A DNA stretch of 24,000 nt from Aquirufa beregesia (GTDB taxonomy: Bacteria; Bacteroidota; Bacteroidia; Cytophagales; Spirosomataceae), in contig NZ_SEWW01000002.1 in NCBI RefSeq assembly GCF_011090385.1, positions 27,825-51,824 of the forward strand. The letters are read 5' to 3'. The position numbers and the translations under genes were made by a program. The notes under the pieces were generated by a model, which was not told the DNA's origin, ran no database searches, and saw nothing but the letters and a program-made list of their open reading frames with translations. The first letter of the stretch is position 1. Each line of letters opens with the position of its first letter. Shown here piece after piece: positions 6,661 to 15,480 of this stretch.

Positions 6661-7419
6661 TTATTTTACCCCTTTTAATGGATATACGAGCTTGATATTC
6701 CACAAAAAGGGCCTTGAGCCTTCTACCTTAGATTCAAAGGTTTTGTTCATGGTAGATTTAAAAATGATAGGAAAATCTTGTAAAGAGAGACTGATTTCAG
6801 AAGTCAAATAATAGCCGTCATTGCCGTCGATGTTGAGGTAATACAATTGCGGAGTAATGCCCAAAGTTACTTTTTTACTTAGTAGAATTTGGGATATATC
6901 GGCATACAGTGTGACAAAGTTTAAAGTACGTAAAGTGCCAGCATCCAAACCATGCGACCTTAAAAAGTAGATTCCCATGGTTAGATGTTTGGACAATTGA
7001 TAACGAGGAAACATTTCTAGAACAAAATAGCGATCCGTTTTTTGAATTTGGATAGAATCATTCGTGGTAGGGATGGGCATTGTAACAAAATTGAGACCTA
7101 AATGCGTCCCCACATTCATCTTAAATTTTGATTGATTTGGACTTAGGTTATAGCGAAACCAAAATAGGGAATACCAAGGTTTGGCTTCTAGTGAAAAGGC
7201 TAATTCTGGGTCAAAGCTGAACCTTCCTTTGGAAACGGACATATTAACTATGGTAGCGGGCTTTTCCAATGAGAAAGAAGGAATAATTGAAAGACCATTG
7301 TTGGTGATACCTATAGAACCAGTAATTTGGGTAGGCTTTGGTAGTTGAATCTCTTGAGAAAAGGTAGTTTTTGATTGTAATAAGAATAGACAAAGGAGAT
7401 AAATGCCTGCTTTTTTCAT
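6661..7419 (-). CDS. exported beta-strand-rich protein of unknown function (paralog A)
   Basis: 252 aa with a signal peptide (MKKAGIYLLCLFLLQSKTTFS/QEI). It shares blocks with ORF 5838-6599 (ITNNGLSIIPSFSLEKPA ... SKGRFSFDP ... KPW ... FWFRY ... FKMNVG). Confidence 0.7.
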   Translation of the reverse strand: MKKAGIYLLCLFLLQSKTTFSQEIQLPKPTQITGSIGITNNGLSIIPSFSLEKPATIVNMSVSKGRFSFDPELAFSLEAKPWYSLFWFRYNLSPNQSKFKMNVGTHLGLNFVTMPIPTTNDSIQIQKTDRYFVLEMFPRYQLSKHLTMGIYFLRSHGLDAGTLRTLNFVTLYADISQILLSKKVTLGITPQLYYLNIDGNDGYYLTSEISLSLQDFPIIFKSTMNKTFESKVEGSRPFLWNIKLVYPLKGVK

Positions 7420-7512: not shown

Positions 7513-8439
7513 ATGGAAGATAAGATTAAGGAAAAAGACTTTGCCATTAGGAATTTGGATTCAGTAGAATCATGTAATGCCTATAATGAGCATTCAACTA
7601 TTAATCCTTGGATAAGTATCATAGATTTTTCAAAATCCACACCTAAATGCCGGGAATGGATGCGTTTGGGTTTTTACTGCATTATGTTGAAAGATATCCA
7701 TTGTGGGGATTTGAAATATGGTATTAGTCAATATGATTACGATGCAGGGACGCTCTTGTTTTTTGCACCCAATCAGATCTATAAAGTAGACAAAGTAGGA
7801 AGCTTATCGGTCCCCCAAGGTTTATGTCTTGTATTTGATGAAGAGTTAATTCGAGGAACTTCTTTACAGAAGCAAATTCATAGATATTCCTTTTTTTCCT
7901 ATGAACATAATGAAGCCTTGCATGTGGATGAAGAAGAAAGAAATAATGTGATGGAAATTATAGCTAAAATTAATCGAGAAATTAGCCCAGAATTAGATGC
8001 TTTAAGTAAGAAATTAATTGTTACAAATATCGAATTACTTTTGGATTATTGCAGCCGATATTATCAAAGACAATTTACGAGTCGACAACCCTTGCATCAA
8101 CTCATTTCTGATAAATTTGCTGATTTAGTAAGAGAGTTTATAATCACAAGTAAATCAGATGATTATGGATTGCCAACGATAAATTATTTTGCGAATAAAT
8201 TGCATATATCGACCAATTATTTAGGAGATGTTATTAAGAAAGAAACCCAGCAAACGCCTATTGAAATTATGCATCAAATAATGATTAATCAGGCGAAAGA
8301 ATTATTGCATGATTTTGAGAAGAATATTAGTGAAATTTCTCATCAATTGGGCTTTACGTATGCGTCACATTTCACGCGCTTTTTTAAGAATAAAATGGGT
8401 CTTACTCCGATTGAATATCGACGAAATTTGAATCGGTAG
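7513..8439 (+). CDS. AraC/XylS-family transcriptional regulator (paralog of 80-994)
   Basis: 308 aa, alignable by eye over its full length with the first AraC (IDFSK, YCI.LKD..CGD..YG...YDY.AGTL.FFAP.Q, FFSY..NEALH, NIEL.L.YC.R.Y.RQF). The C-terminal HTH reads INYFANKLHISTNYLGDVIKKETQQTP ... ISHQLGFTYASHFTRFFKNKMGLTPIEYR. Confidence 0.9.
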   Translation: MEDKIKEKDFAIRNLDSVESCNAYNEHSTINPWISIIDFSKSTPKCREWMRLGFYCIMLKDIHCGDLKYGISQYDYDAGTLLFFAPNQIYKVDKVGSLSVPQGLCLVFDEELIRGTSLQKQIHRYSFFSYEHNEALHVDEEERNNVMEIIAKINREISPELDALSKKLIVTNIELLLDYCSRYYQRQFTSRQPLHQLISDKFADLVREFIITSKSDDYGLPTINYFANKLHISTNYLGDVIKKETQQTPIEIMHQIMINQAKELLHDFEKNISEISHQLGFTYASHFTRFFKNKMGLTPIEYRRNLNR

Positions 8440-8824: not shown

Positions 8825-8855
8825 ATCCTCCTGAAAGTATAATTTTCAGGAGGAT
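8825..8855 (-). terminator. intrinsic terminator of the minus-strand cluster
   Basis: Perfect 12-bp stem, ATCCTCCTGAAA (8825-8836) with TTTCAGGAGGAT (8844-8855), and a 7-nt loop. On the minus strand it is followed by a T5-6 run (A-run 8820-8824). It lies 15 nt after the stop codon at 8871. Confidence 0.75.
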
Positions 8856-8870
8856 AATTTTGTTATATAT

Positions 8871-9332
8871 TTACTGCCTAATGTGCTGACTATTCAGAAT
8901 TTGTTTGCCTGTGGATAATAATTCTTTACTAGTTAAATAACCACTTGATTTGAGTAAAATTTCCCCATTAGGAAAAATAAAAAGTAAGGTTGGATATCCC
9001 GAGATATCGTATGTTGTACTTAAAATTCTACCCTCTTCTTGTTCCCCATCTAGTGCTACATTAATAAAATTTTGATTGAAAAAAGTCCCCACTTCTTGGT
9101 CAGAAAAAGTATATTTTTTAAGCTTTTTACAAGGGCCGCACCAAGTCGCAAAAACATCTAAAAAAACAATTTTATTTTCCTTTTTAGCTCTAGCTAAAGC
9201 GCCAGTCCAATTTTCTTTTTGAAAAATAATACCTCCATTGGGATCTTTATGAAAGTCAACAGAGGGGTTTTCAAATAAGTATATCGTAAACAAGGTAGCA
9301 AGACCTAGGGTGACAAATATGATACTTTTCAT
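8871..9332 (-). CDS. exported/anchored thioredoxin-fold protein (WCGPC active site)
   Basis: Contains the WCGPC thioredoxin motif (FLDVFATWCGPCKKL). ATG 9332 gives MKSIIFVTLGLATLFTIYLF, a signal peptide or anchor, and sits 1 nt after the upstream stop (TAAcATG). The ORF track's 9362 start would overlap the upstream gene by 29 nt. Confidence 0.85.
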   Translation of the reverse strand: MKSIIFVTLGLATLFTIYLFENPSVDFHKDPNGGIIFQKENWTGALARAKKENKIVFLDVFATWCGPCKKLKKYTFSDQEVGTFFNQNFINVALDGEQEEGRILSTTYDISGYPTLLFIFPNGEILLKSSGYLTSKELLSTGKQILNSQHIRQ

Positions 9333-9333
9333 G

Positions 9334-9903
9334 TTAGTTCTGTTTAAATTCCGCATGGACATTTATATCAATAGATTTATTAATATTTGTTGAGGGTTTT
9401 CCACTAGTGAAAGCAATTCCATACTCAGCTAAAACGACGAAAAATTTACTATCCACAAAAATATTTTTTCCTTTTACATTGATGCTCCCTTTTTCCCTTA
9501 TTGTATTGGTTTTATCTTTCATCGTTAATTCTCCAGTAATTTGAGCTGGATATGTTCCATCTTTGTCGAAATGGATAGCAGATAGATTGGTAATTTTCCC
9601 CACTAACTTAGCTTTGGGAAATTGCTTGGTATCTAGAAATTTGTTATTATTAAAATGTTTCTGCATCAAGGCTTTTTCGAATTCAAAGCTTTGCATGGGA
9701 ACAGAAAAAACAACTTCCCCAGTTTGTGTGTCTATAGTCCCAATAGATTTAAAATTTTGAGCTTCAATATCTTCAGCAACCGTATGAGAAAAGATCTTGA
9801 TAAGTATGGTATTACTTATTAATCTCTCCTCTACCATAGTAAAGGAAGAAGTAGTGAAAAAAGAGGCTAGTAATACGAACCCCAATAGATGTAATTTTTT
9901 CAT
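9334..9903 (-). CDS. YceI-like (lipid/polyisoprenoid-binding beta-barrel family) exported protein
   Basis: 189 aa with a signal peptide. The pattern F.S.G.ID..TGEV.F.VPM.SF...KALMQKHF.....LDTKQFPKAKL.GKI ... G.LT+ resembles YceI-family proteins. Confidence 0.55.
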   Translation of the reverse strand: MKKLHLLGFVLLASFFTTSSFTMVEERLISNTILIKIFSHTVAEDIEAQNFKSIGTIDTQTGEVVFSVPMQSFEFEKALMQKHFNNNKFLDTKQFPKAKLVGKITNLSAIHFDKDGTYPAQITGELTMKDKTNTIREKGSINVKGKNIFVDSKFFVVLAEYGIAFTSGKPSTNINKSIDINVHAEFKQN

Positions 9904-9921
9904 GTTTATTATGTTTATAGT

Positions 9922-10401
9922 TTAAAATTCTAATGATTGTTTTATGTCACATTTTTCTAAAATAACATCCTCATACATTTGAAGATCAGCATCATAAGAA
10001 GCACCTGATCTGATGACACCTTTTATTTGTACTAAATCTCCAATTTTTATATCCTTAGTATGTTTATTCGTTTTTTTTGTGAAGGTACATTGAATGCCTG
10101 CTTTACTATTTTCTTGTTTCAAAAGGAGAACGATATTACCTGCTAAATCCTTTTCAAATTTTGAAACCTTTCCGTTTACGGACAATATTTTTGAATCACC
10201 TTCTGCATCAAGATATTTTTGATTTGCTTTTTTAGGATCCAATAAATATTCATCGACCAATTCATTTGCAGAAATAGAATAATCTGCCTCTAATGAAACG
10301 ACATCCCTATGTGGCATTTGAAATTGAAATACTAAAAATGCGGTGATTACTAGTAGTATTATGGCACTTATTACCCATACCTTTCGAGCTATTTTTTTCA
10401 T
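9922..10401 (-). CDS. N-terminally membrane-anchored OB-fold protein (tRNA_anti-like family type)
   Basis: 159 aa. It has an N-terminal TM helix (VWVISAIILLVITAFLVF), then ...PHRDV......Y.ISA.EL..EY......AN.KYL...I.V.G.V..., as in Bacteroidota tRNA_anti-like OB-fold proteins. Confidence 0.5.
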   Translation of the reverse strand: MKKIARKVWVISAIILLVITAFLVFQFQMPHRDVVSLEADYSISANELVDEYLLDPKKANQKYLDAEGDSKILSVNGKVSKFEKDLAGNIVLLLKQENSKAGIQCTFTKKTNKHTKDIKIGDLVQIKGVIRSGASYDADLQMYEDVILEKCDIKQSLEF

Positions 10402-10446
10402 TGTAAATGTTTATTTATAAAACTTAATGTGATAATCACGGATTTG

Positions 10447-10773
10447 TCACCCAATAGAATTAATTTTTCTAAAAAAATATACTTGGTTATTTTGTAGAAT
10501 AGTTACTTGTTGACAATGGCTTAAATATGTTATGATAAATGGCAAACGGAAGTTGAAATCTGCAGATTGATATTCGACAAATGTGCCACTGCATTCAAGA
10601 ATACCAACAGGGTTAAATCTCGAAATGTTATACTGTTTATTTTCTTTAAGATTCATGACAAACCATGAGCCAGCACCTTCTCCTGCTAACCATTGTGCTG
10701 AATCAGGTAAATTTTGAGGAATGTTGGGTTTAGCAAGGGTATTTTTCGATTTTGCTATATGAGTATATGTCAT
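10447..10773 (-). CDS. hypothetical protein (108 aa, no recognisable family)
   Basis: The ORF track opens at TTG 10785; the first ATG is 10773 (MTYTHIAKSK...). Contains AQWLAGEGAGSWF. It overlaps the 3' end of the upstream gene by 44 nt in the +1 frame. Confidence 0.6.
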   Translation of the reverse strand: MTYTHIAKSKNTLAKPNIPQNLPDSAQWLAGEGAGSWFVMNLKENKQYNISRFNPVGILECSGTFVEYQSADFNFRLPFIITYLSHCQQVTILQNNQVYFFRKINSIG

Positions 10774-11404
10774 TTTTTTGTTCAAGTTGATTTGAATGAT
10801 ATGATTTTAAGGCTACTACATTCCAAGCTGGGGTAGGAGTAAATGTCAGCGGGATAAATAGTCGATACCAAAACCTAAAGGAAGGTTTTCCAAACAATAT
10901 GACAGTTCTAACAAACCTTGAACAATTGGTGCCATTCCATATAAATGGCCCATATTCAATAGCTCCCTTTTGTTGCATACTAATAGCCTTTATATAGGCT
11001 TTTTTGAAATCAATTGGGCAGTATGATCCAATTAGATTTCCTGTTCCATGACAGGATTTATTTTTTTCTACATATTGGAAGATCTCCCTTAAATTTCTAA
11101 TTGTGCCATCTTCAATTTTAGCTCGAATAGGAATTTCAAGATCAAAATCCGTGCCTTTGTTTCTTACTCTACCATGCCCATTGGGGGCGTGATATCTTCC
11201 AAAATCGAAGTAATGACAATCTCCGTTTTTCTCATAAATTAGAATAACGGCAGCATGGCCAACCCGGTAGTAATTATTTTTTGAGATACCGAGTATGTGC
11301 ATTAAATAATCATACCAAGCACCGGTTTTTTTACACAGTGTTTCTGGCCACGCTAATGAGATAGCAAAACCATTATGCTTCAATGTGCTCATAGGAAAAT
11401 TCAT
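10730..11404 (-). CDS. putative permuted papain-fold thiol enzyme (LRAT / NlpC-P60-like signature)
   Basis: VGHAAVILIYEKNGDCHYFDF (His, then a second His 14 residues later) followed ~97 aa downstream by GTNCSRFVRTVI. This resembles the H...H...NCEHFV arrangement of the LRAT/HRASLS family. The likely start is ATG 11404 (MNFPMSTLKH) or 11392. The 11500 start in the ORF track would overlap the NRDE gene by 128 nt. Confidence 0.45.
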   Translation of the reverse strand: MNFPMSTLKHNGFAISLAWPETLCKKTGAWYDYLMHILGISKNNYYRVGHAAVILIYEKNGDCHYFDFGRYHAPNGHGRVRNKGTDFDLEIPIRAKIEDGTIRNLREIFQYVEKNKSCHGTGNLIGSYCPIDFKKAYIKAISMQQKGAIEYGPFIWNGTNCSRFVRTVILFGKPSFRFWYRLFIPLTFTPTPAWNVVALKSYHSNQLEQKNDIYSYSKIEKYPC

Positions 11405-12095
11405 GATGTTTATTTTTTGGAGATAATAAGTCAATATACTTAAAGCTAAAGCCCTTATAATCTTGGATAATTTGAGAGATACTAATAGTTTTGAGTGCAT
11501 TGCCTCTTTCCATCATGATATCATTCTCCTTATTTATTCCTAGGCTACCCTTATGAAAGTCAAGGATATTTTGAGGAGGATTGTGTAGTAACCATTCTTG
11601 AAAAAGTTGCTCTCTTAAAAGCCTAATTTCTGGGCTGTACAAAGTAGCGGAGGACCAAATTTTGGTTTTTGATGTATCTAATTTAGAAACATGCTTTTGC
11701 TCCCCATCCCACCGTAATTCTGTTAATCTTGGCGTTGATTTATTTTCAAGCATGATTAGCGTAAATGGTTCTACATCATCAAAATCCATGAATGCTTGGA
11801 ACATCTCTGCATTTGGATAGATAAAACTGTCAAGAAGCACTTGTCCACGACTTAATTTGTAAGACTCTTTCTTAGTATGATTTTCAAATGCTCCATTGAG
11901 TAAACAGGCAATTCTATTTTCACTAGGACTCAGTGCAATCCATGTTCCACCTGATTGAAGATCTTTGGGGAAAATTAAATGGGAACCTTTCATGTGATAA
12001 TTCTTCGGAATATCAGTTGGCCGAATTACTTTTTCATCTCGATTGGATGTGAGAATGAAACCTGTTTCAGTTGGGATATAACTTACTGTGCACAT
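11373..12095 (-). CDS. NRDE-family (TANGO2-like) protein, putative N-terminal-nucleophile (Ntn) hydrolase with Cys2
   Basis: Begins MCTVSYIPTETGFILTSNRDE, the family-defining N-terminal Met-Cys plus NRDE motif. 240 aa. Its ATG lies inside the last codons of the upstream DinB-like gene (13-nt overlap). Confidence 0.8.
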   Translation of the reverse strand: MCTVSYIPTETGFILTSNRDEKVIRPTDIPKNYHMKGSHLIFPKDLQSGGTWIALSPSENRIACLLNGAFENHTKKESYKLSRGQVLLDSFIYPNAEMFQAFMDFDDVEPFTLIMLENKSTPRLTELRWDGEQKHVSKLDTSKTKIWSSATLYSPEIRLLREQLFQEWLLHNPPQNILDFHKGSLGINKENDIMMERGNALKTISISQIIQDYKGFSFKYIDLLSPKNKHHEFSYEHIEA

Positions 12096-12592
12096 GATGT
12101 TCTTTCTTGATATTGAATGGTAGAATTAGCGTAGCCAAATGTTGGTTTAATGATTTCAGATAAATTTTGCTCGATTAAACTAACTCGAATGAGAGCCTGG
12201 TGATGGATACTATGTTCCAGACAGTAATATAGTTCCCTCCCGAAACTGCTAGTAAATACTTGATCTGAAATAGAAGTGTCTTGAATTTGTAAGAGAGTAT
12301 TTTCAACGTTTTTACTAGCTAATGATAGCATGGTATAACCAATAAAATCATTCGCTAATTCAAGGTTTATTTCAATATTCTTATTCCGTTCTCGTTTACT
12401 ATAATCAACAAAAACGAAAGACTTATTTGTCAGTATTCCTTCATAAAATTCCAATATATGACGTACATGTTCTCCAATGGAAGAACCTAGCAAATATTTG
12501 GACTGATACCTATATTGCTCTTCAGAAAGCTGTTCTAAAAGCAACTTTAAATCCTTCAAGTTTAGAATGCATTGATTAATCATGAGAATCAT
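12083..12592 (-). CDS. DinB/YfiT-like four-helix-bundle metalloprotein
   Basis: 169 aa with SIGEHVRHILEFYEGIL and CLEHSIHHQALIRV, matching the His-triad pattern of the DinB superfamily. Confidence 0.65.
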   Translation of the reverse strand: MILMINQCILNLKDLKLLLEQLSEEQYRYQSKYLLGSSIGEHVRHILEFYEGILTNKSFVFVDYSKRERNKNIEINLELANDFIGYTMLSLASKNVENTLLQIQDTSISDQVFTSSFGRELYYCLEHSIHHQALIRVSLIEQNLSEIIKPTFGYANSTIQYQERTSCAQ

Positions 12593-12603
12593 TTAAAGAT
12601 GTA

Positions 12604-13086
12604 TTATTTAGTTAAGTATAAGGTTTTGATCACGTGAGTGCCAGTTTTAAGGTTTACTCCAAATAATTCTATTTTAGGTATTTGGGGAAACCAGAAGGAA
12701 CTACCCACTAAATGAATGTAGATTTTGTTCAATACGAATTCTTCTTTTTGTATTTGAGTTACTACATAAAAGGTATTGTCATCTGCTTTTTTGACAGTAA
12801 AAATTTGCTTGGCATAAGACACAAAATGAAATGTTGCATTCTCTTTGGTTTTCGACAGAAAATGTAAGCCATATGCATACTTTTGTTGAATCCAAGTCAA
12901 TGAAGAGATCCTTCCATTTTCCGTATGCTTTACCCAATAAATAGTTATTGGGTTATCTTTAAGGTGACCTTCTTCATCGGTTTGAATGGAGTAGATAATT
13001 TGATTAGCATCTTTACTTCGTTCAATGATAAAGCCTGAATTTATCACATTGAAACAAAGTATACATCCCAGGAATAGTTGTGTCAT
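12604..13086 (-). CDS. exported DUF4833-like protein
   Basis: 160 aa with a hydrophobic N-terminus and a possible lipobox-like segment (LFLGCILC). FIIERSKDANQIIY ... NPITIYWVKH ... IQQKYAYGL resembles what I recall of the DUF4833 family. The assignment is from memory and was not searched. Confidence 0.45.
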   Translation of the reverse strand: MTQLFLGCILCFNVINSGFIIERSKDANQIIYSIQTDEEGHLKDNPITIYWVKHTENGRISSLTWIQQKYAYGLHFLSKTKENATFHFVSYAKQIFTVKKADDNTFYVVTQIQKEEFVLNKIYIHLVGSSFWFPQIPKIELFGVNLKTGTHVIKTLYLTK

Positions 13087-13124
13087 CTCATCGTTTATTT
13101 GGGTATACCTTAATATCTAAAAAC

Positions 13125-13157
13125 AAAAAAAATCACCCGGTGGAAGGTGATTTTTTT
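13125..13157 (-). terminator. hairpin between the sigma gene and the downstream cluster (terminator or attenuator)
   Basis: AAAAAAATCACC (13126-13137) pairs with GGTGATTTTTTT (13146-13157) around an 8-nt loop. On the minus strand the GC core ATCACC/GGTGAT is followed by a T8 run. It lies 25 nt after the sigma stop codon and 38 nt before ATG 13086. Confidence 0.55.
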
Positions 13158-13182
13158 AAATTGTTTTTAAAATATGCCGATT

Positions 13183-13725
13183 TTAATCGATTTGCTGCTC
13201 TTTAATTTTTTTAATCTGTTCTACACATTTGTGTTTTTGATTTTGAGCATTATGTCTAGTAGAATAGCCATATTGAATTTGAATTTCCTCTATGGGCTTA
13301 TTTTTAAAGAAAATATCGTGTAAAAGCCGATTACAATGATCGGTAATTCTACTCATTAAATATTGCAGCCTGTCCGTGTAACTTTTTTCTTCTTCAATAC
13401 TTTGCTCAATAGTTTCAAAAAATAAGTGATATTCTTTTTCTGAAATATCAAGGAAAGAGGGCATATTTCTAATCTTATTGAACCAGAGATATTTAGCAAT
13501 AGCAAATACGTAAGTTTTTAATGAGGCCGTTAGTTGAAAGTCATCATGTCTAAGCTTTTCAACTAGAATAATCATAGTATCTTGAAATATATCTAATGAA
13601 TCATCAGGAGTCCCTTTATTATTCAGAATAAAGCGATTAACAATCGGGAAATAGGATTTATATAATTCGCCATATGCAAAATTGCATTCCTTTTTTAAGT
13701 CAATAAGTAGGCTTTCATGATCCAT
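13183..13725 (-). CDS. RNA polymerase sigma-70 family (ECF-like) sigma factor
   Basis: 180 aa. The region-2-like segment is YKSYFPIVNRFILNNKGTPDDSLDIFQDTMIILVEKL ... LKTYVFAIAKYLWFNKIR. The C-terminal region-4-like HTH is CNRLLHDIFFKNKPIEEIQIQYGYSTRHNAQNQKHKCVEQIKK. Confidence 0.8.
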   Translation of the reverse strand: MDHESLLIDLKKECNFAYGELYKSYFPIVNRFILNNKGTPDDSLDIFQDTMIILVEKLRHDDFQLTASLKTYVFAIAKYLWFNKIRNMPSFLDISEKEYHLFFETIEQSIEEEKSYTDRLQYLMSRITDHCNRLLHDIFFKNKPIEEIQIQYGYSTRHNAQNQKHKCVEQIKKIKEQQID

Positions 13726-13800: not shown

Positions 13801-14439
13801 TTACCTTGCATGTTTGTGCGATCCATCACAAGAAGGCATTTTTTGGGAAAGGCCACAAATACAATCACTTAATCCCTTGCCAATAAGGATGCGTTTTGTG
13901 TTTTTTTCAATTCTGGAAATTCTTGTGGCAGCTTGTTTTGGCTCCGCAAAATGCATCAAATACATTCTTTGTCGACCCGGAGTTAATCGTGCAAAAGCTG
14001 TTTTTAATGCTTCATCCTCATCCATGGCGCTTTGAAATTCCTCTGGAACAGCATAATCCTCAATTTTTTTTAAGGTCACTTTGGCACCCGATTTTTCCAC
14101 TTCAATCGCTTCTAAAATATACGCTTTAATCAGTGCTTCTTTGGATAGGATATCGTCAAGATGGGTGAATCGAATTTGTCGGCTCGACTGTGTATTTTCC
14201 CCTGGTTTACTAAAGACGTGGGCAGAATCTTTTAATAAAACGCCTTTAAAAAACATGATGGCAACGTATTCTTTGAAACCTTGTAGAATAACCAAATTCG
14301 ACTTGTCATGGGAATAGCAAGGGGAGCTCCATTTCAAATCTTCTTCCAAGCCCATCTCCAACAATAGGCTTCTCAGTAAGCTTAATTCCGCTTGCCATTT
14401 GTCTAGTTTTACCAGAAAGGCATCTACTTTAGGATTCAT
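13801..14439 (-). CDS. DUF1801/YdeI(OmpD-associated)-like protein fused to a C-terminal CDGSH iron-sulfur motif
   Basis: The N-terminal and central parts are YdeI-like (MNPKVDAFL..KWQAEL..LR ... LTPGRQRMYLMHFAEPKQAATRISRIEK). The last 28 aa contain CICGLSQKMPSCDGSH, an exact match to C-x-C-x2-(S/T)-x3-P-x-C-D-G-(S/A/T)-H (nt 13816-13863). Confidence 0.8.
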   Translation of the reverse strand: MNPKVDAFLVKLDKWQAELSLLRSLLLEMGLEEDLKWSSPCYSHDKSNLVILQGFKEYVAIMFFKGVLLKDSAHVFSKPGENTQSSRQIRFTHLDDILSKEALIKAYILEAIEVEKSGAKVTLKKIEDYAVPEEFQSAMDEDEALKTAFARLTPGRQRMYLMHFAEPKQAATRISRIEKNTKRILIGKGLSDCICGLSQKMPSCDGSHKHAR

Positions 14440-14532: not shown

Positions 14533-15480
14533 TTAGGACTTATTTATAGGATAATCCATGCCCAAATGGGAATCTTGCCCATCTACTTGAGGGCCGCCTC
14601 CAGGGAAGTGTTTGGTGGTCATGGCCACGGATTGAGTTCCTAAATTTTTTCCTTGAAAACCCACAATGATTTCTTGAATCATACGAGATGTCAAATCTGC
14701 ATCTTCTCCAAAGGCCCCTTCCATTCGCTGCCAACGTGGTTCGGTGGCTAAGTCGGCCATGTACATATATCCTTTTCGTAGACCAGCCGCACGCCATTCT
14801 TTAGAAGCAATTTCAGCAAATTGACGCGTCAAAGCAAAGTCTCTCATAGCAGCCAAACCTAATTCCTCAGGCCATTTAGAAAATGCCGTTACACCCACAC
14901 TTAATCCAACTGAAGCATCTGTGGTCACATGATTTCTTGGGTTGGAAGCCACGATGGCTGGTATCCCTAGTCGTGTTTCCTCGCACAAGGCTTGGAGATT
15001 GTTGGACCATTTTGCCAAGATTTCTGGAGCGGCGTTCGCTCTCAAAATGAAGTGACGAGGGTGAAATTGACGAGCCCCTTTTGTGGTTCCGGTAGTGGCC
15101 ATATTAGGGGCTCCCAGCAGCTTTCGGATAAACATTTGGTGTTTTGAATCAGATCTTCTTCATAGAAACGATCGCTGATGGGTGTAGCTGGACGCGCAGC
15201 TGGCGCTCCACCAAATCCATTGTCGCCACCCATGCGAGTCGTACTAATTAACATGAAGCCCACCTTTTCCTCCTAGGTCATTTGAGAAACCAAGTCCTTA
15301 ATTTCTCTCCGAAATGGGGAATCGCCAATCCTCGTATCGATCTAACTTGTTGTTTTTATTCAGGTCTTTGAACTGCATTTGTTGCAGATGGAGCATTTCC
15401 ACTTAATTGTGGCTGACTTGTATGGAACCGTGCTTGTATTGGTAAAAGACAAAATAGCTAACAGGCCTAGCAAATACATG
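14533..15480 (-). pseudogene. decayed glycoside hydrolase family 3 (beta-glucosidase/xylosidase-type) gene
   Basis: GH3-like sequence is spread over four reading frames. Frame 1: a signal-peptide-like MYLLGLLAILSF from ATG 15480. Frame 2: QFKDLNKNNKLDRYEDWRFPISER. Frame 3: IKDLVSQMT-(TAG 15273-15275)-EEKVGFMLIS...DRFYEEDLIQ. Frame 4: FIRKLLG...RLGIPAIVASNPRNH...KHFPGGGPQVDGQDSH in ORF 14533-15135. It ends after ~310 codons, before the SDW nucleophile motif and the whole C-terminal domain. Confidence 0.8.

Follow-up and report, generated by a model that had tools for sequence, protein, structure and literature searches.

The window analysed here is a stretch of 24,000 nucleotides (nt) from the freshwater bacterium Aquirufa beregesia (Bacteroidota, Cytophagales). 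The subject is a compact cluster of minus-strand genes that lies next to a gene for a divergent sigma factor. Eight open reading frames (ORFs) run on this strand from position 13086 down to 8871, and their junctions are, in order, an 11-nt gap, overlaps of 13, 32 and 44 nt, and gaps of 45, 18 and 1 nt. The ORF list of the window reproduces exactly the set and the seven junction lengths that a first-pass annotation, made from the DNA alone, had described. Independent gene calls on the window DNA give the same start codons; alternative longest forms start at 11500 for the TseH-like ORF, at 10785 for the ORF of the DUF6695 C-terminal domain (DUF6695C) and at 9362 for the thioredoxin ORF. The two hairpins said to bracket the cluster were both found and are terminator-like. 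The first (13126-13157, minus strand) separates the sigma gene from the gene that opens the cluster, has a 13-pair stem followed by a T-run, and is kept in a sister species. The second (8825-8855, minus strand) closes the cluster 16 nt past the thioredoxin stop with a stem of 12-14 pairs and a T-run. Terminator-like sites number 11 in the region, compared with 3.1 ± 1.6 in shuffles. The sister species, at about 80% protein identity, retains all eight genes, their lengths, their order and the 44-nt overlap, and the cluster ORFs are therefore real genes under selection and not sequencing artefacts. With one strand, short gaps or overlaps, flanking terminators and a conserved order, the eight ORFs are predicted to form one compact transcription unit.

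The protein families of the window were assigned by Pfam and NCBIfam profiles against curated cut-offs (in bits), and two of the earlier labels changed as a result. The ORF at 10730-11404 (minus strand), previously called LRAT/NlpC-P60-like, actually encodes the catalytic half of an enzyme of the TseH family of permuted NlpC/P60 cysteine enzymes (PF25218, 167.6 bits against 27, E 3e-49, profile positions 1-159 of 167). The 108-aa product of the next ORF (10447-10773, minus strand), formerly without a name, is its detached partner, DUF6695C (PF20405, 78.5 bits against 25, E 4.8e-22). The protein database holds fused homologues of 310-345 aa with both domains. The Aquirufa pair, with the TseH-like N-domain and the DUF6695 C-domain on separate overlapping ORFs, is thus a split member of the DUF6695 family, and the supposed eight genes amount to seven protein units.

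In the TseH-like protein, residues C24, H50, H72, H119 and C161 are at least 95% conserved among 81 sequences, and C118 occurs in most of them. The catalytic histidine (H50) precedes the cysteine (C161, motif GTNCSRFV), as in permuted members, a clade that works via a Cys-acyl intermediate. An AlphaFold model of a fused homologue (P0028, 52% identical, pLDDT 79.6) matches PDB entry 6v98 in Foldseek at E 1e-6, with a TM score of 0.69 and 22% identity, and a direct PDB sequence search with the TseH-like protein retrieves the same entry weakly, at E 0.015. RecA matches in that search were rejected as recurring low-scoring artefacts. The TseH-like protein has no secretion signal or signal peptide and is probably cytoplasmic. 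DUF6695C, a small domain of beta structure, carries the motif WLxGEGxGSWF.

The relatives of the cluster were collected by scanning one genome per species for TseH-like proteins. This gave 380 relatives, of which the best 80 loci were kept; they are the top matches to the window protein, at 49% identity or more, and they come from Flavobacteriales, Sphingobacteriales, Chitinophagales, Saprospiraceae, Cytophagales, Bacteroidales and other groups. Families were counted by a profile hidden Markov model (HMM) search of the ORFs in these 80 species-level loci at E <= 1e-5. The family clusters were built by single-linkage BLAST, and the 'CMD' cluster was split afterwards into two families. ORFs were called from ATG only, which truncated many starts among the genes for extracytoplasmic function (ECF) sigma factors. 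Many contigs are short, and the family counts are therefore lower bounds.

DUF6695C invariably adjoins the TseH-like gene in these loci. The two are fused in 33 of the 80 and split in 47, and this repeated fusion and fission marks them as obligate partners. The split forms show all three frame relations, each part has its own ATG, and the spacing between them ranges from -110 to +103 nt. In Aquirufa an A7 tract (10766-10775) coincides exactly with the overlap of the DUF6695C start codon and the TseH-like ORF, and it is kept in the sister species. Programmed frameshifting or slippage as a general way of joining the two ORFs was nevertheless rejected, as no such run occurs in 43 other split loci, each of which has its own ATG. 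Low-level slippage to a fused product may occur at the Aquirufa tract.

Upstream of this pair lie two genes that also belong together. The first (12083-12592, minus strand) encodes a putative four-helix metalloprotein of the DinB superfamily with a His-rich site. The earlier description as a DinB-like His-triad protein agrees, as regards the triad, with the conservation of its metal-site residues in 26 orthologues, where R44, E48, H127, H130 and H131 never vary and H42, H45 and E126 reach at least 90%, but its Pfam scores fall just short of the cut-offs (DinB 22.5 against 24.8, DinB_2 21.3 against 23). The His-triad pattern is present as H42/H45 with H127-x3-H131, and a profile of the family finds PDB entry 3dka, a 'DinB-like protein', at E 0.006. 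The second gene (11373-12095, minus strand) encodes a protein of the TANGO2/NRDE family, a putative cysteine N-terminal-nucleophile (Cys-Ntn) amidohydrolase. Here the first label, NRDE/TANGO2-like with a cysteine at position 2, is upheld by PF05742 (58 bits against 22.6), and M1-C2-T3 and R19-D20-E21 are invariant in 23 orthologues. The protein can be aligned to residues 19-76 of human TANGO2, the NRDE region, Arg32 included; direct sequence similarity to the solved TANGO2 structure is weak (E 0.14). PDB sequence searches with the DUF4833, NRDE and DinB proteins as queries gave nothing meaningful. In Aquirufa and in many other lineages the end of DinB and the beginning of NRDE overlap, with 'CAQ-stop' and 'MCTV' written in the same nucleotides.

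The other four products were correctly named at the outset, all of them scoring above the Pfam cut-offs. The first gene of the cluster (12604-13086, minus strand) encodes an all-beta DUF4833 protein (PF16117, 110.7 bits against 23.1, E 8e-32) with a signal-peptide-like N-terminus; its homologues have hydrophobic N-termini, and its AlphaFold model has a pLDDT of 85.3. The gene at 9922-10401 (minus strand) encodes an OB-fold protein of the tRNA_anti-like family (PF12869, 59.4 bits against 23.5, E 3.7e-16), anchored by an N-terminal hydrophobic helix. An invariant Met-Pro-His stands right after this helix in 32 orthologues and could be a metal- or oxidant-facing site. It is followed by an exported YceI-like protein (9334-9903, minus strand; PF04264, 57.3 bits against 23.7, E 3.1e-15), a family that binds isoprenoids. 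The last gene (8871-9332, minus strand) encodes an exported or anchored thioredoxin-like protein (54.9 bits, above the cut-off, with matches to Thioredoxin_7, Thioredoxin_2 and a DsbD-C-terminal-like family) whose W64-C65-G66-P67-C68 shows 95% conservation or more. Hydrophobic N-termini and family membership suggest that the anchored OB-fold protein, the YceI protein, the periplasmic thioredoxin and the DUF4833 protein form an envelope part of the cluster.

The same families recur together across the 80 loci. The TseH-like gene is present in all of them, DUF6695C in 77, DinB in 57 and NRDE in 49. Thioredoxin was counted in 37, YceI in 32, the OB-fold protein in 31 and DUF4833 in 27. The OB-fold and YceI genes are paired in 31 loci, and YceI stands nearly always straight after OB. 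Peroxiredoxin-like proteins occur in 26 loci, CMD/AhpD-like proteins in 21 and disulfide-reductase-like flavoproteins in 19, and an ECF sigma factor and an anti-sigma factor in 25 each. The genes are almost always on the same strand, but their order is shuffled. The commonest full order is ECF sigma, anti-sigma of about 90 aa, OB, YceI, (CoaB-like), DUF4833, DinB, NRDE, TseH-like, DUF6695C, thioredoxin, Thioredoxin_9, a protein with a type IX secretion system (T9SS) tail, peroxiredoxin/AhpD-like, and MerC/GDCCVxC. This synteny across Bacteroidota, together with the conserved stop/start overlaps, supports the claim that the genes work as a unit.

The neighbours also favour the thiol/oxidant-stress idea behind the first of two functional hypotheses offered before, as they comprise peroxiredoxins, AhpD-like proteins, thioredoxins, glutathione-reductase-like flavoproteins, DoxX, rhodanese, DsrE, cysteine dioxygenase and a decarboxylase like cysteine sulfinate decarboxylase (CSAD). 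The flavoproteins in the 19 loci are of glutathione-reductase/MerA/RclA-like type, and DUF3179 is a further recurrent neighbour. MerC-like/GDCCVxC proteins are present in 16 of the 80 loci, and other small Cys/His-rich proteins are among the neighbours.

Several additional gene associations were observed in these loci. An MNIO/DUF2063/DoxX operon adjoins the ECF/anti-sigma pair in several of them, and loci L027, L036, L051 and L073 (e.g. L036 1923-3907) have complete HvfA/bufferin-type metallophore operons of the ribosomally synthesised and post-translationally modified peptide (RiPP) class in or beside the cluster, with the same pair and with a KCGExKCG-repeat peptide, an MNIO enzyme, DUF2063 and DoxX. 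A stand-alone CoaB-like protein is encoded between YceI and DUF4833 in L016, L041, L048, L056, L068 and L075 (e.g. L048 5396-6058). Only its phosphopantothenate-cysteine ligase half is present (213.7 bits, with the cut-off at 219.7), and it is a cysteine-ligating enzyme within the cluster. A fusion of Rieske [2Fe-2S] and glutamate-synthase-like FMN domains (about 535-650 aa) repeatedly flanks the TseH/DUF6695 gene (L011, L034, L037, L064, L046, L065 and L080), often accompanied by an uncharacterised 267-aa protein. In Elizabethkingia anophelis (L087, NWGH01000002.1), the TseH-like, Thioredoxin_9, thioredoxin and redoxin genes adjoin genes for ArsR, MerT-HMA and a MerA-like flavoprotein. That locus also has a sigma factor of the window type, as well as RteC, DUF1896 and helicase-methylase genes of the sort usual in conjugative elements, and part of the module may for this reason be mobile.

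The DinB-NRDE pair, translationally coupled where it stands, is replaced at that position in some lineages. A group-II pyridoxal-phosphate (PLP) decarboxylase, CSAD-like, lies directly upstream of the TseH-like gene in 13 of the 80 loci, with a stop/start spacing of -13 to +11 nt in 12 of them. It is never found together with DinB or NRDE (0 of 13; Fisher p 3.6e-9 for DinB and 6.5e-7 for NRDE). The specificity motif of the decarboxylase, readable in 12 of the 13, is Y/F-S-Y; Agnello and colleagues, in work of 2013, are said to have found F-S-Y in cysteine sulfinate decarboxylase and S-N-F in glutamate decarboxylase. A protein of the cysteine dioxygenase type (CDO_I, 36.8 bits against 23) precedes the decarboxylase in three loci. 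Cysteine dioxygenase (CDO) together with CSAD makes hypotaurine, which is known to scavenge HOCl and hydroxyl radicals. The exclusive replacement indicates that the TseH/DUF6695 enzyme is coupled either to hypotaurine synthesis or to DinB and a Cys-Ntn hydrolase. The window has neither CDO nor a CSAD-type decarboxylase; both occur only in related loci without DinB and NRDE.

The sigma gene (13183-13725, minus strand) encodes a divergent sigma-70/ECF-like factor of 180 aa, and its profile matches are weak (Sigma70_r2 22.1 against 24; TIGR02937 35.8 against 42.9, residues 19-173). Its homologues are named sigma factors by their sources, and the family is 55-69% identical across Bacteroidota, with a mean column identity of 71% across orders. 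Its C-terminal half has an invariant His130-Cys131, His158 and His165-Lys166-Cys167, and from this pattern the factor might itself sense redox state or metal. It shares only 24% identity with the ECF sigma of most other loci. Orthologues of the window type occur within the cluster of L085 (68% identity; YceI, sigma, DinB, peroxiredoxin), lead the cluster of L090 (62% identity; sigma, OB, YceI, Trx ... DinB, NRDE), precede YceI in Formosa and, in Elizabethkingia, lie some 7 kb away from the TseH-like gene; further members are located elsewhere. Regulators of the Crp family adjoin the window-type sigma gene in two other genomes (L088 and L090). The proposal that the cluster is sigma-linked is supported by comparison, with orthologues within or leading this gene set in other lineages, but in the window itself the hairpin separates the two. 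The other part of that proposal, a sigma factor with no recognisable anti-sigma partner, agrees with the window, as an anti-sigma profile finds none there.

An ECF sigma and zinc-type anti-sigma pair, which is what the gene set follows in most lineages, takes the place of the window-type sigma in 25 of the 80 loci. This anti-sigma is soluble, about 90 aa long, and has an invariant Cys and HxxxCxxC; it matches the NCBIfam 'anti-sigma factor family protein' at E 2.9e-12, slightly under the cut-off. By their gene positions, two sigma families head the same genes in different lineages.

Because a strong terminator-like hairpin parts the sigma gene from DUF4833, expression of the cluster must come either from a separate promoter within the 40-nt leader or from read-through. 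The short leader (13087-13125, minus strand) holds a candidate promoter, TTG-N11-ATTAAGGT, with ATTAAGGT at 13114-13107. A similar arrangement of a terminator and TTG-N11-ATTAAGGT is found ahead of the peroxiredoxin gene in L085 (6870-6905), and both are downstream of a window-type sigma gene. The element ATTAAGGT is common to two or three sites and barely enriched, with 55 occurrences against about 35 expected; TTG-N11-ATTAAGGT is a candidate sigma-specific promoter and serves as a lead only. A scan for sigma-70-type promoters was at background (33 against 28.6 ± 4.9).

The surroundings of the cluster contain a few further features. Upstream of the sigma gene, a gene at 13801-14439 (minus strand) encodes a fusion of DUF1801 (PF08818, 66.9 bits), YdeI/OmdA (PF13376, 57.5 bits) and a CDGSH domain of iron-sulfur type (zf-CDGSH, 27.7 against a cut-off of 29.5), and its position is conserved in the sister species. 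Stand-alone two-motif CDGSH proteins lie directly upstream of DinB in L025 (2255-2500) and L031 (6472-6732). The fusion is a possible outlying member, with a weak association; CDGSH as a core member was rejected, as only these two other loci have such a protein. A 200-aa ORF of glycoside hydrolase family 3 (GH3; 14533-15135) is a fragment and looks like the remnant of a truncated pseudogene, since a full GH3 gene of 676 aa occupies this position in the sister species (L083 2829-4859). Downstream of the cluster are an AraC gene (7513-8439) and a gene for a 252-aa protein (6661-7419), where the sister species has a TonB-receptor-like gene instead. The G+C fraction of the window is 0.30-0.35 between 8500 and 13500, compared with 0.38-0.45 in the flanks (2-6 kb and 14.5-17.5 kb). 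Rfam at the gathering threshold found no riboswitch or other RNA family in the whole window.

The best explanation of these observations, held at about even confidence as a whole, is that the cluster is the Aquirufa version of a phylum-wide oxidant/thiol-stress neighbourhood to which a chemistry of sulfur amines is joined. Its two components differ in strength. A stress module is likely, whereas the specific chemistry, read from gene content, is tentative and rather doubtful. On the best reading, the module has an envelope part and a cytoplasmic enzymatic part, the latter made up of DinB, NRDE and the two-piece TseH/DUF6695 enzyme. The envelope set of OB-fold, YceI, thioredoxin and DUF4833 proteins would protect or repair the periplasm. 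The cytoplasmic set would make or recycle an amide or acyl conjugate, formed with a sulfur amine that derives from cysteine, which oxidants would use up. Both the DinB-NRDE and the CSAD(-CDO) versions would supply such an amine, of the hypotaurine or cysteamine type, which is proposed from the exact replacement of DinB-NRDE by hypotaurine-synthesis enzymes. The TseH/DUF6695 enzyme would couple the amine to an acyl or amide carrier, or free it from one, through a Cys-thioester intermediate. NRDE would act as an amidase and DinB would carry out a metal-dependent thiol-handling step, giving a product that is sacrificed as an antioxidant when oxidants threaten the cell. In its fullest form, which is a distinctly long shot, the proposal is that DinB, TANGO2/NRDE and TseH/DUF6695 constitute an unrecognised Bacteroidota pathway that makes and recycles an amide (e.g. 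N-acyl) conjugate of hypotaurine, or of cysteamine from a pantetheine-like carrier, with the conjugate as the sacrificial antioxidant.

Several points weigh against this explanation. Each chemical step in it is inferred. Most of the 80 loci are fragmentary metagenome bins, which makes the counts biased and the absences uncertain. The DinB membership scores are under the Pfam cut-offs, the DUF4833 model has no significant PDB match, and the DUF6695 C-domain has no significant structural relative in a Foldseek search with the model of the fused homologue. CDO is adjacent in only three of the 13 decarboxylase loci, and the best NCBIfam match of the decarboxylase is diaminobutyrate decarboxylase, far under its cut-off. 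In about 11 loci DinB is present and NRDE was not detected in the locus, and about 10 loci have neither pair, for which reason the two pairs may not be functionally equivalent. On the regulatory side, the terminator-like hairpin stands between the sigma gene and the cluster, a profile of 24 anti-sigma factors run against the six-frame translation finds no anti-sigma in the window (best E 0.24), and comparison of the leaders of the window and the related loci established no shared promoter motif.

The alternative that survives best, although unlikely, is the first of the two earlier hypotheses, the detoxification of low-molecular-weight-thiol conjugates, with DinB as an S-transferase of the bacillithiol/mycothiol type, NRDE and the TseH-like enzyme trimming the conjugate in a mercapturate-like way, and the product exported. 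The DinB superfamily with a conserved His site does include thiol S-transferases, and the site is conserved here. Two Cys-nucleophile hydrolase folds follow DinB in the cluster. The thiol-redox neighbours and the ZAS-type regulator moreover resemble the SigR regulon, which includes thioredoxin-system genes and mycothiol conjugate amidase. However, bshA, bshB, bshC, gshA and an exporter are not consistently present, and a search confined to the 80 loci turned up no bsh, msh or gsh genes. The sub-threshold DinB scores count against this explanation too, and the exchange of DinB-NRDE for a decarboxylase and cysteine dioxygenase is hard to reconcile with conjugate trimming.

Somewhat less probable again is the second earlier hypothesis, the remodelling or repair of envelope lipids or quinones, with no part for sulfur amines. 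The TseH-like enzyme would then be an LRAT/PLAAT-type phospholipase or acyltransferase, NRDE would bind or cleave acyl-CoA or fatty amides, and YceI and the OB-fold protein would handle periplasmic lipids. The isoprenoid binding of YceI proteins is in line with this. The TseH clade groups with lipid-acting permuted NlpC/P60 enzymes; Vibrio cholerae TseH was inactive in a mass-spectrometry phospholipase assay, however, and active in a second assay only at pH 8.9 (PMC12994826). For the NRDE protein, a lipid substrate is suggested by human TANGO2, whose NRDE motif binds C16/C18 acyl-CoA (PMC11867700). Human TANGO2 is structurally a Cys-Ntn hydrolase of unknown substrate that resembles NAAA, acid ceramidase and bile-salt hydrolase, an enzyme that frees taurine or glycine (PMC13044924), and it looks like a fatty-amide Cys-Ntn hydrolase (PMC11867700, PMC13044924). 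Yet the conserved neighbours are thiol and peroxide enzymes and not lipid-synthesis genes, and the replacement by CDO/CSAD suggests small molecules made from cysteine. Signal peptides are also missing from the TseH-like and NRDE proteins, whereas YceI and the OB-fold protein are exported.

A response to thiol-reactive metals such as copper or mercury, in which the envelope proteins bind or reduce metal ions and the cytoplasmic enzymes repair metal-damaged thiols, is improbable as a separate explanation, and it overlaps the best one. The related loci supply its evidence: the MerC-like/GDCCVxC and small Cys/His-rich proteins, the HvfA-type MNIO metallophore operons nearby, the MerT-HMA and MerA-like neighbours in Elizabethkingia, and the conserved Met-Pro-His after the anchor of the OB-fold protein. 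The Aquirufa window, by contrast, is without these metal genes, and no metal-binding motif is seen in the core enzymes other than DinB. Responses to HOCl, H2O2 and paraquat are published for ZAS-type regulators of this kind (PMC7907618).

A toxin-immunity or secretion-linked conflict module, with the TseH-like protein as an antibacterial effector and the 108-aa protein as its immunity factor, is highly implausible: the Pfam family is named after the V. cholerae type VI secretion system (T6SS) effector TseH and conflict-type genomic contexts are reported for the TseH clade (Pfam DUF6695; PMC12994826), but the two proteins are one fused polypeptide in 41% of species (33 of 80 loci), the window and the related loci are free of T6SS, Rhs, PAAR and immunity-like genes, none of 10 proteins matches PADLOC, the TseH-like protein carries no secretion signal, and phylum-wide conservation beside housekeeping-style redox genes is unlike a conflict system.

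The cluster appears, as far as could be found, to be new to the literature. A literature search on the DUF names, on TANGO2 gene neighbourhoods and on Bacteroidota ECF, YceI and DinB proteins found no account of it, in agreement with the earlier statement that no known pathway unites these families. The stress reading matters because it appears to define a widespread Bacteroidota oxidant/thiol-stress module in a phylum whose redox-stress biology and low-molecular-weight thiols are little known. Were the sulfur-amine conjugate pathway real, the TANGO2 family would have amides of this kind as its native substrate class, and the window sigma family would sense redox via its own His/Cys pairs in replacement of a sigma/anti-sigma pair. 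Were the chemistry ordinary peroxide or disulfide repair, the finding would be a useful annotation only.

Among known systems, the closest in regulation are those of Neisseria SigE (NMB2144/NMB2145) and Haemophilus influenzae RpoE2-HrsE, in which an ECF sigma and a small cytoplasmic zinc-type anti-sigma govern an HOCl/H2O2 regulon. The pair in 25 of the 80 loci is of this kind (about 90 aa, Cys...HxxxCxxC). The RpoE2/SigE regulons also include a DoxX-containing gene cluster (PMC7907618), and several related loci likewise have MNIO, DUF2063 and DoxX beside the pair. The Aquirufa window differs in having another sigma, no anti-sigma and no msrAB, and DinB, NRDE, TseH/DUF6695, OB, YceI and DUF4833 are not reported from those regulons. 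Streptomyces SigR-RsrA is similar in its zinc-type anti-sigma, which acts as a thiol sensor, and in its mixture of thioredoxin-system genes with low-molecular-weight-thiol enzymes. It belongs, however, to another phylum with another thiol chemistry; mycothiol genes are missing here, and regulation is deduced from gene position only. The window sigma itself can be compared with the CorE-type ECF sigmas of Myxococcus, which sense metal or redox state via their own Cys-rich region with no anti-sigma. The invariant His-Cys and His-x-Cys of the window family and its lack of an adjacent anti-sigma are alike, but the motif differs, and metal or redox sensing by the window sigma would be pure inference.

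The hypotaurine/taurine pathway of animals and cyanobacteria is matched by the CSAD-like decarboxylase in 13 of the 80 related loci and by CDO_I in three. Neither enzyme is in the Aquirufa window, the specificity is deduced from a three-residue motif described in the literature, and to our knowledge no link leads from this pathway to any NlpC/P60 enzyme. V. cholerae TseH (PDB 6v98) belongs to the same Pfam family, has the same fold, as judged from the modelled homologue of 52% identity, and has His before Cys. The Bacteroidota enzyme, in contrast, stands in a non-T6SS context, always has its DUF6695 C-domain partner, has the extra conserved C24, H72 and H119 (and C118 in most), and is probably cytoplasmic. 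Human TANGO2 (PDB 8sv7) shares PF05742, the invariant Met1-Cys2 and the (S/N)RDE motif with the bacterial NRDE protein, whose gene, unlike that of TANGO2, is translationally coupled to DinB. TANGO2 deficiency is a severe human metabolic disorder. With a bacterial TANGO2 homologue in a coupled set that is interchangeable with hypotaurine-synthesis enzymes, candidate TANGO2 substrates become testable in tractable bacteria.

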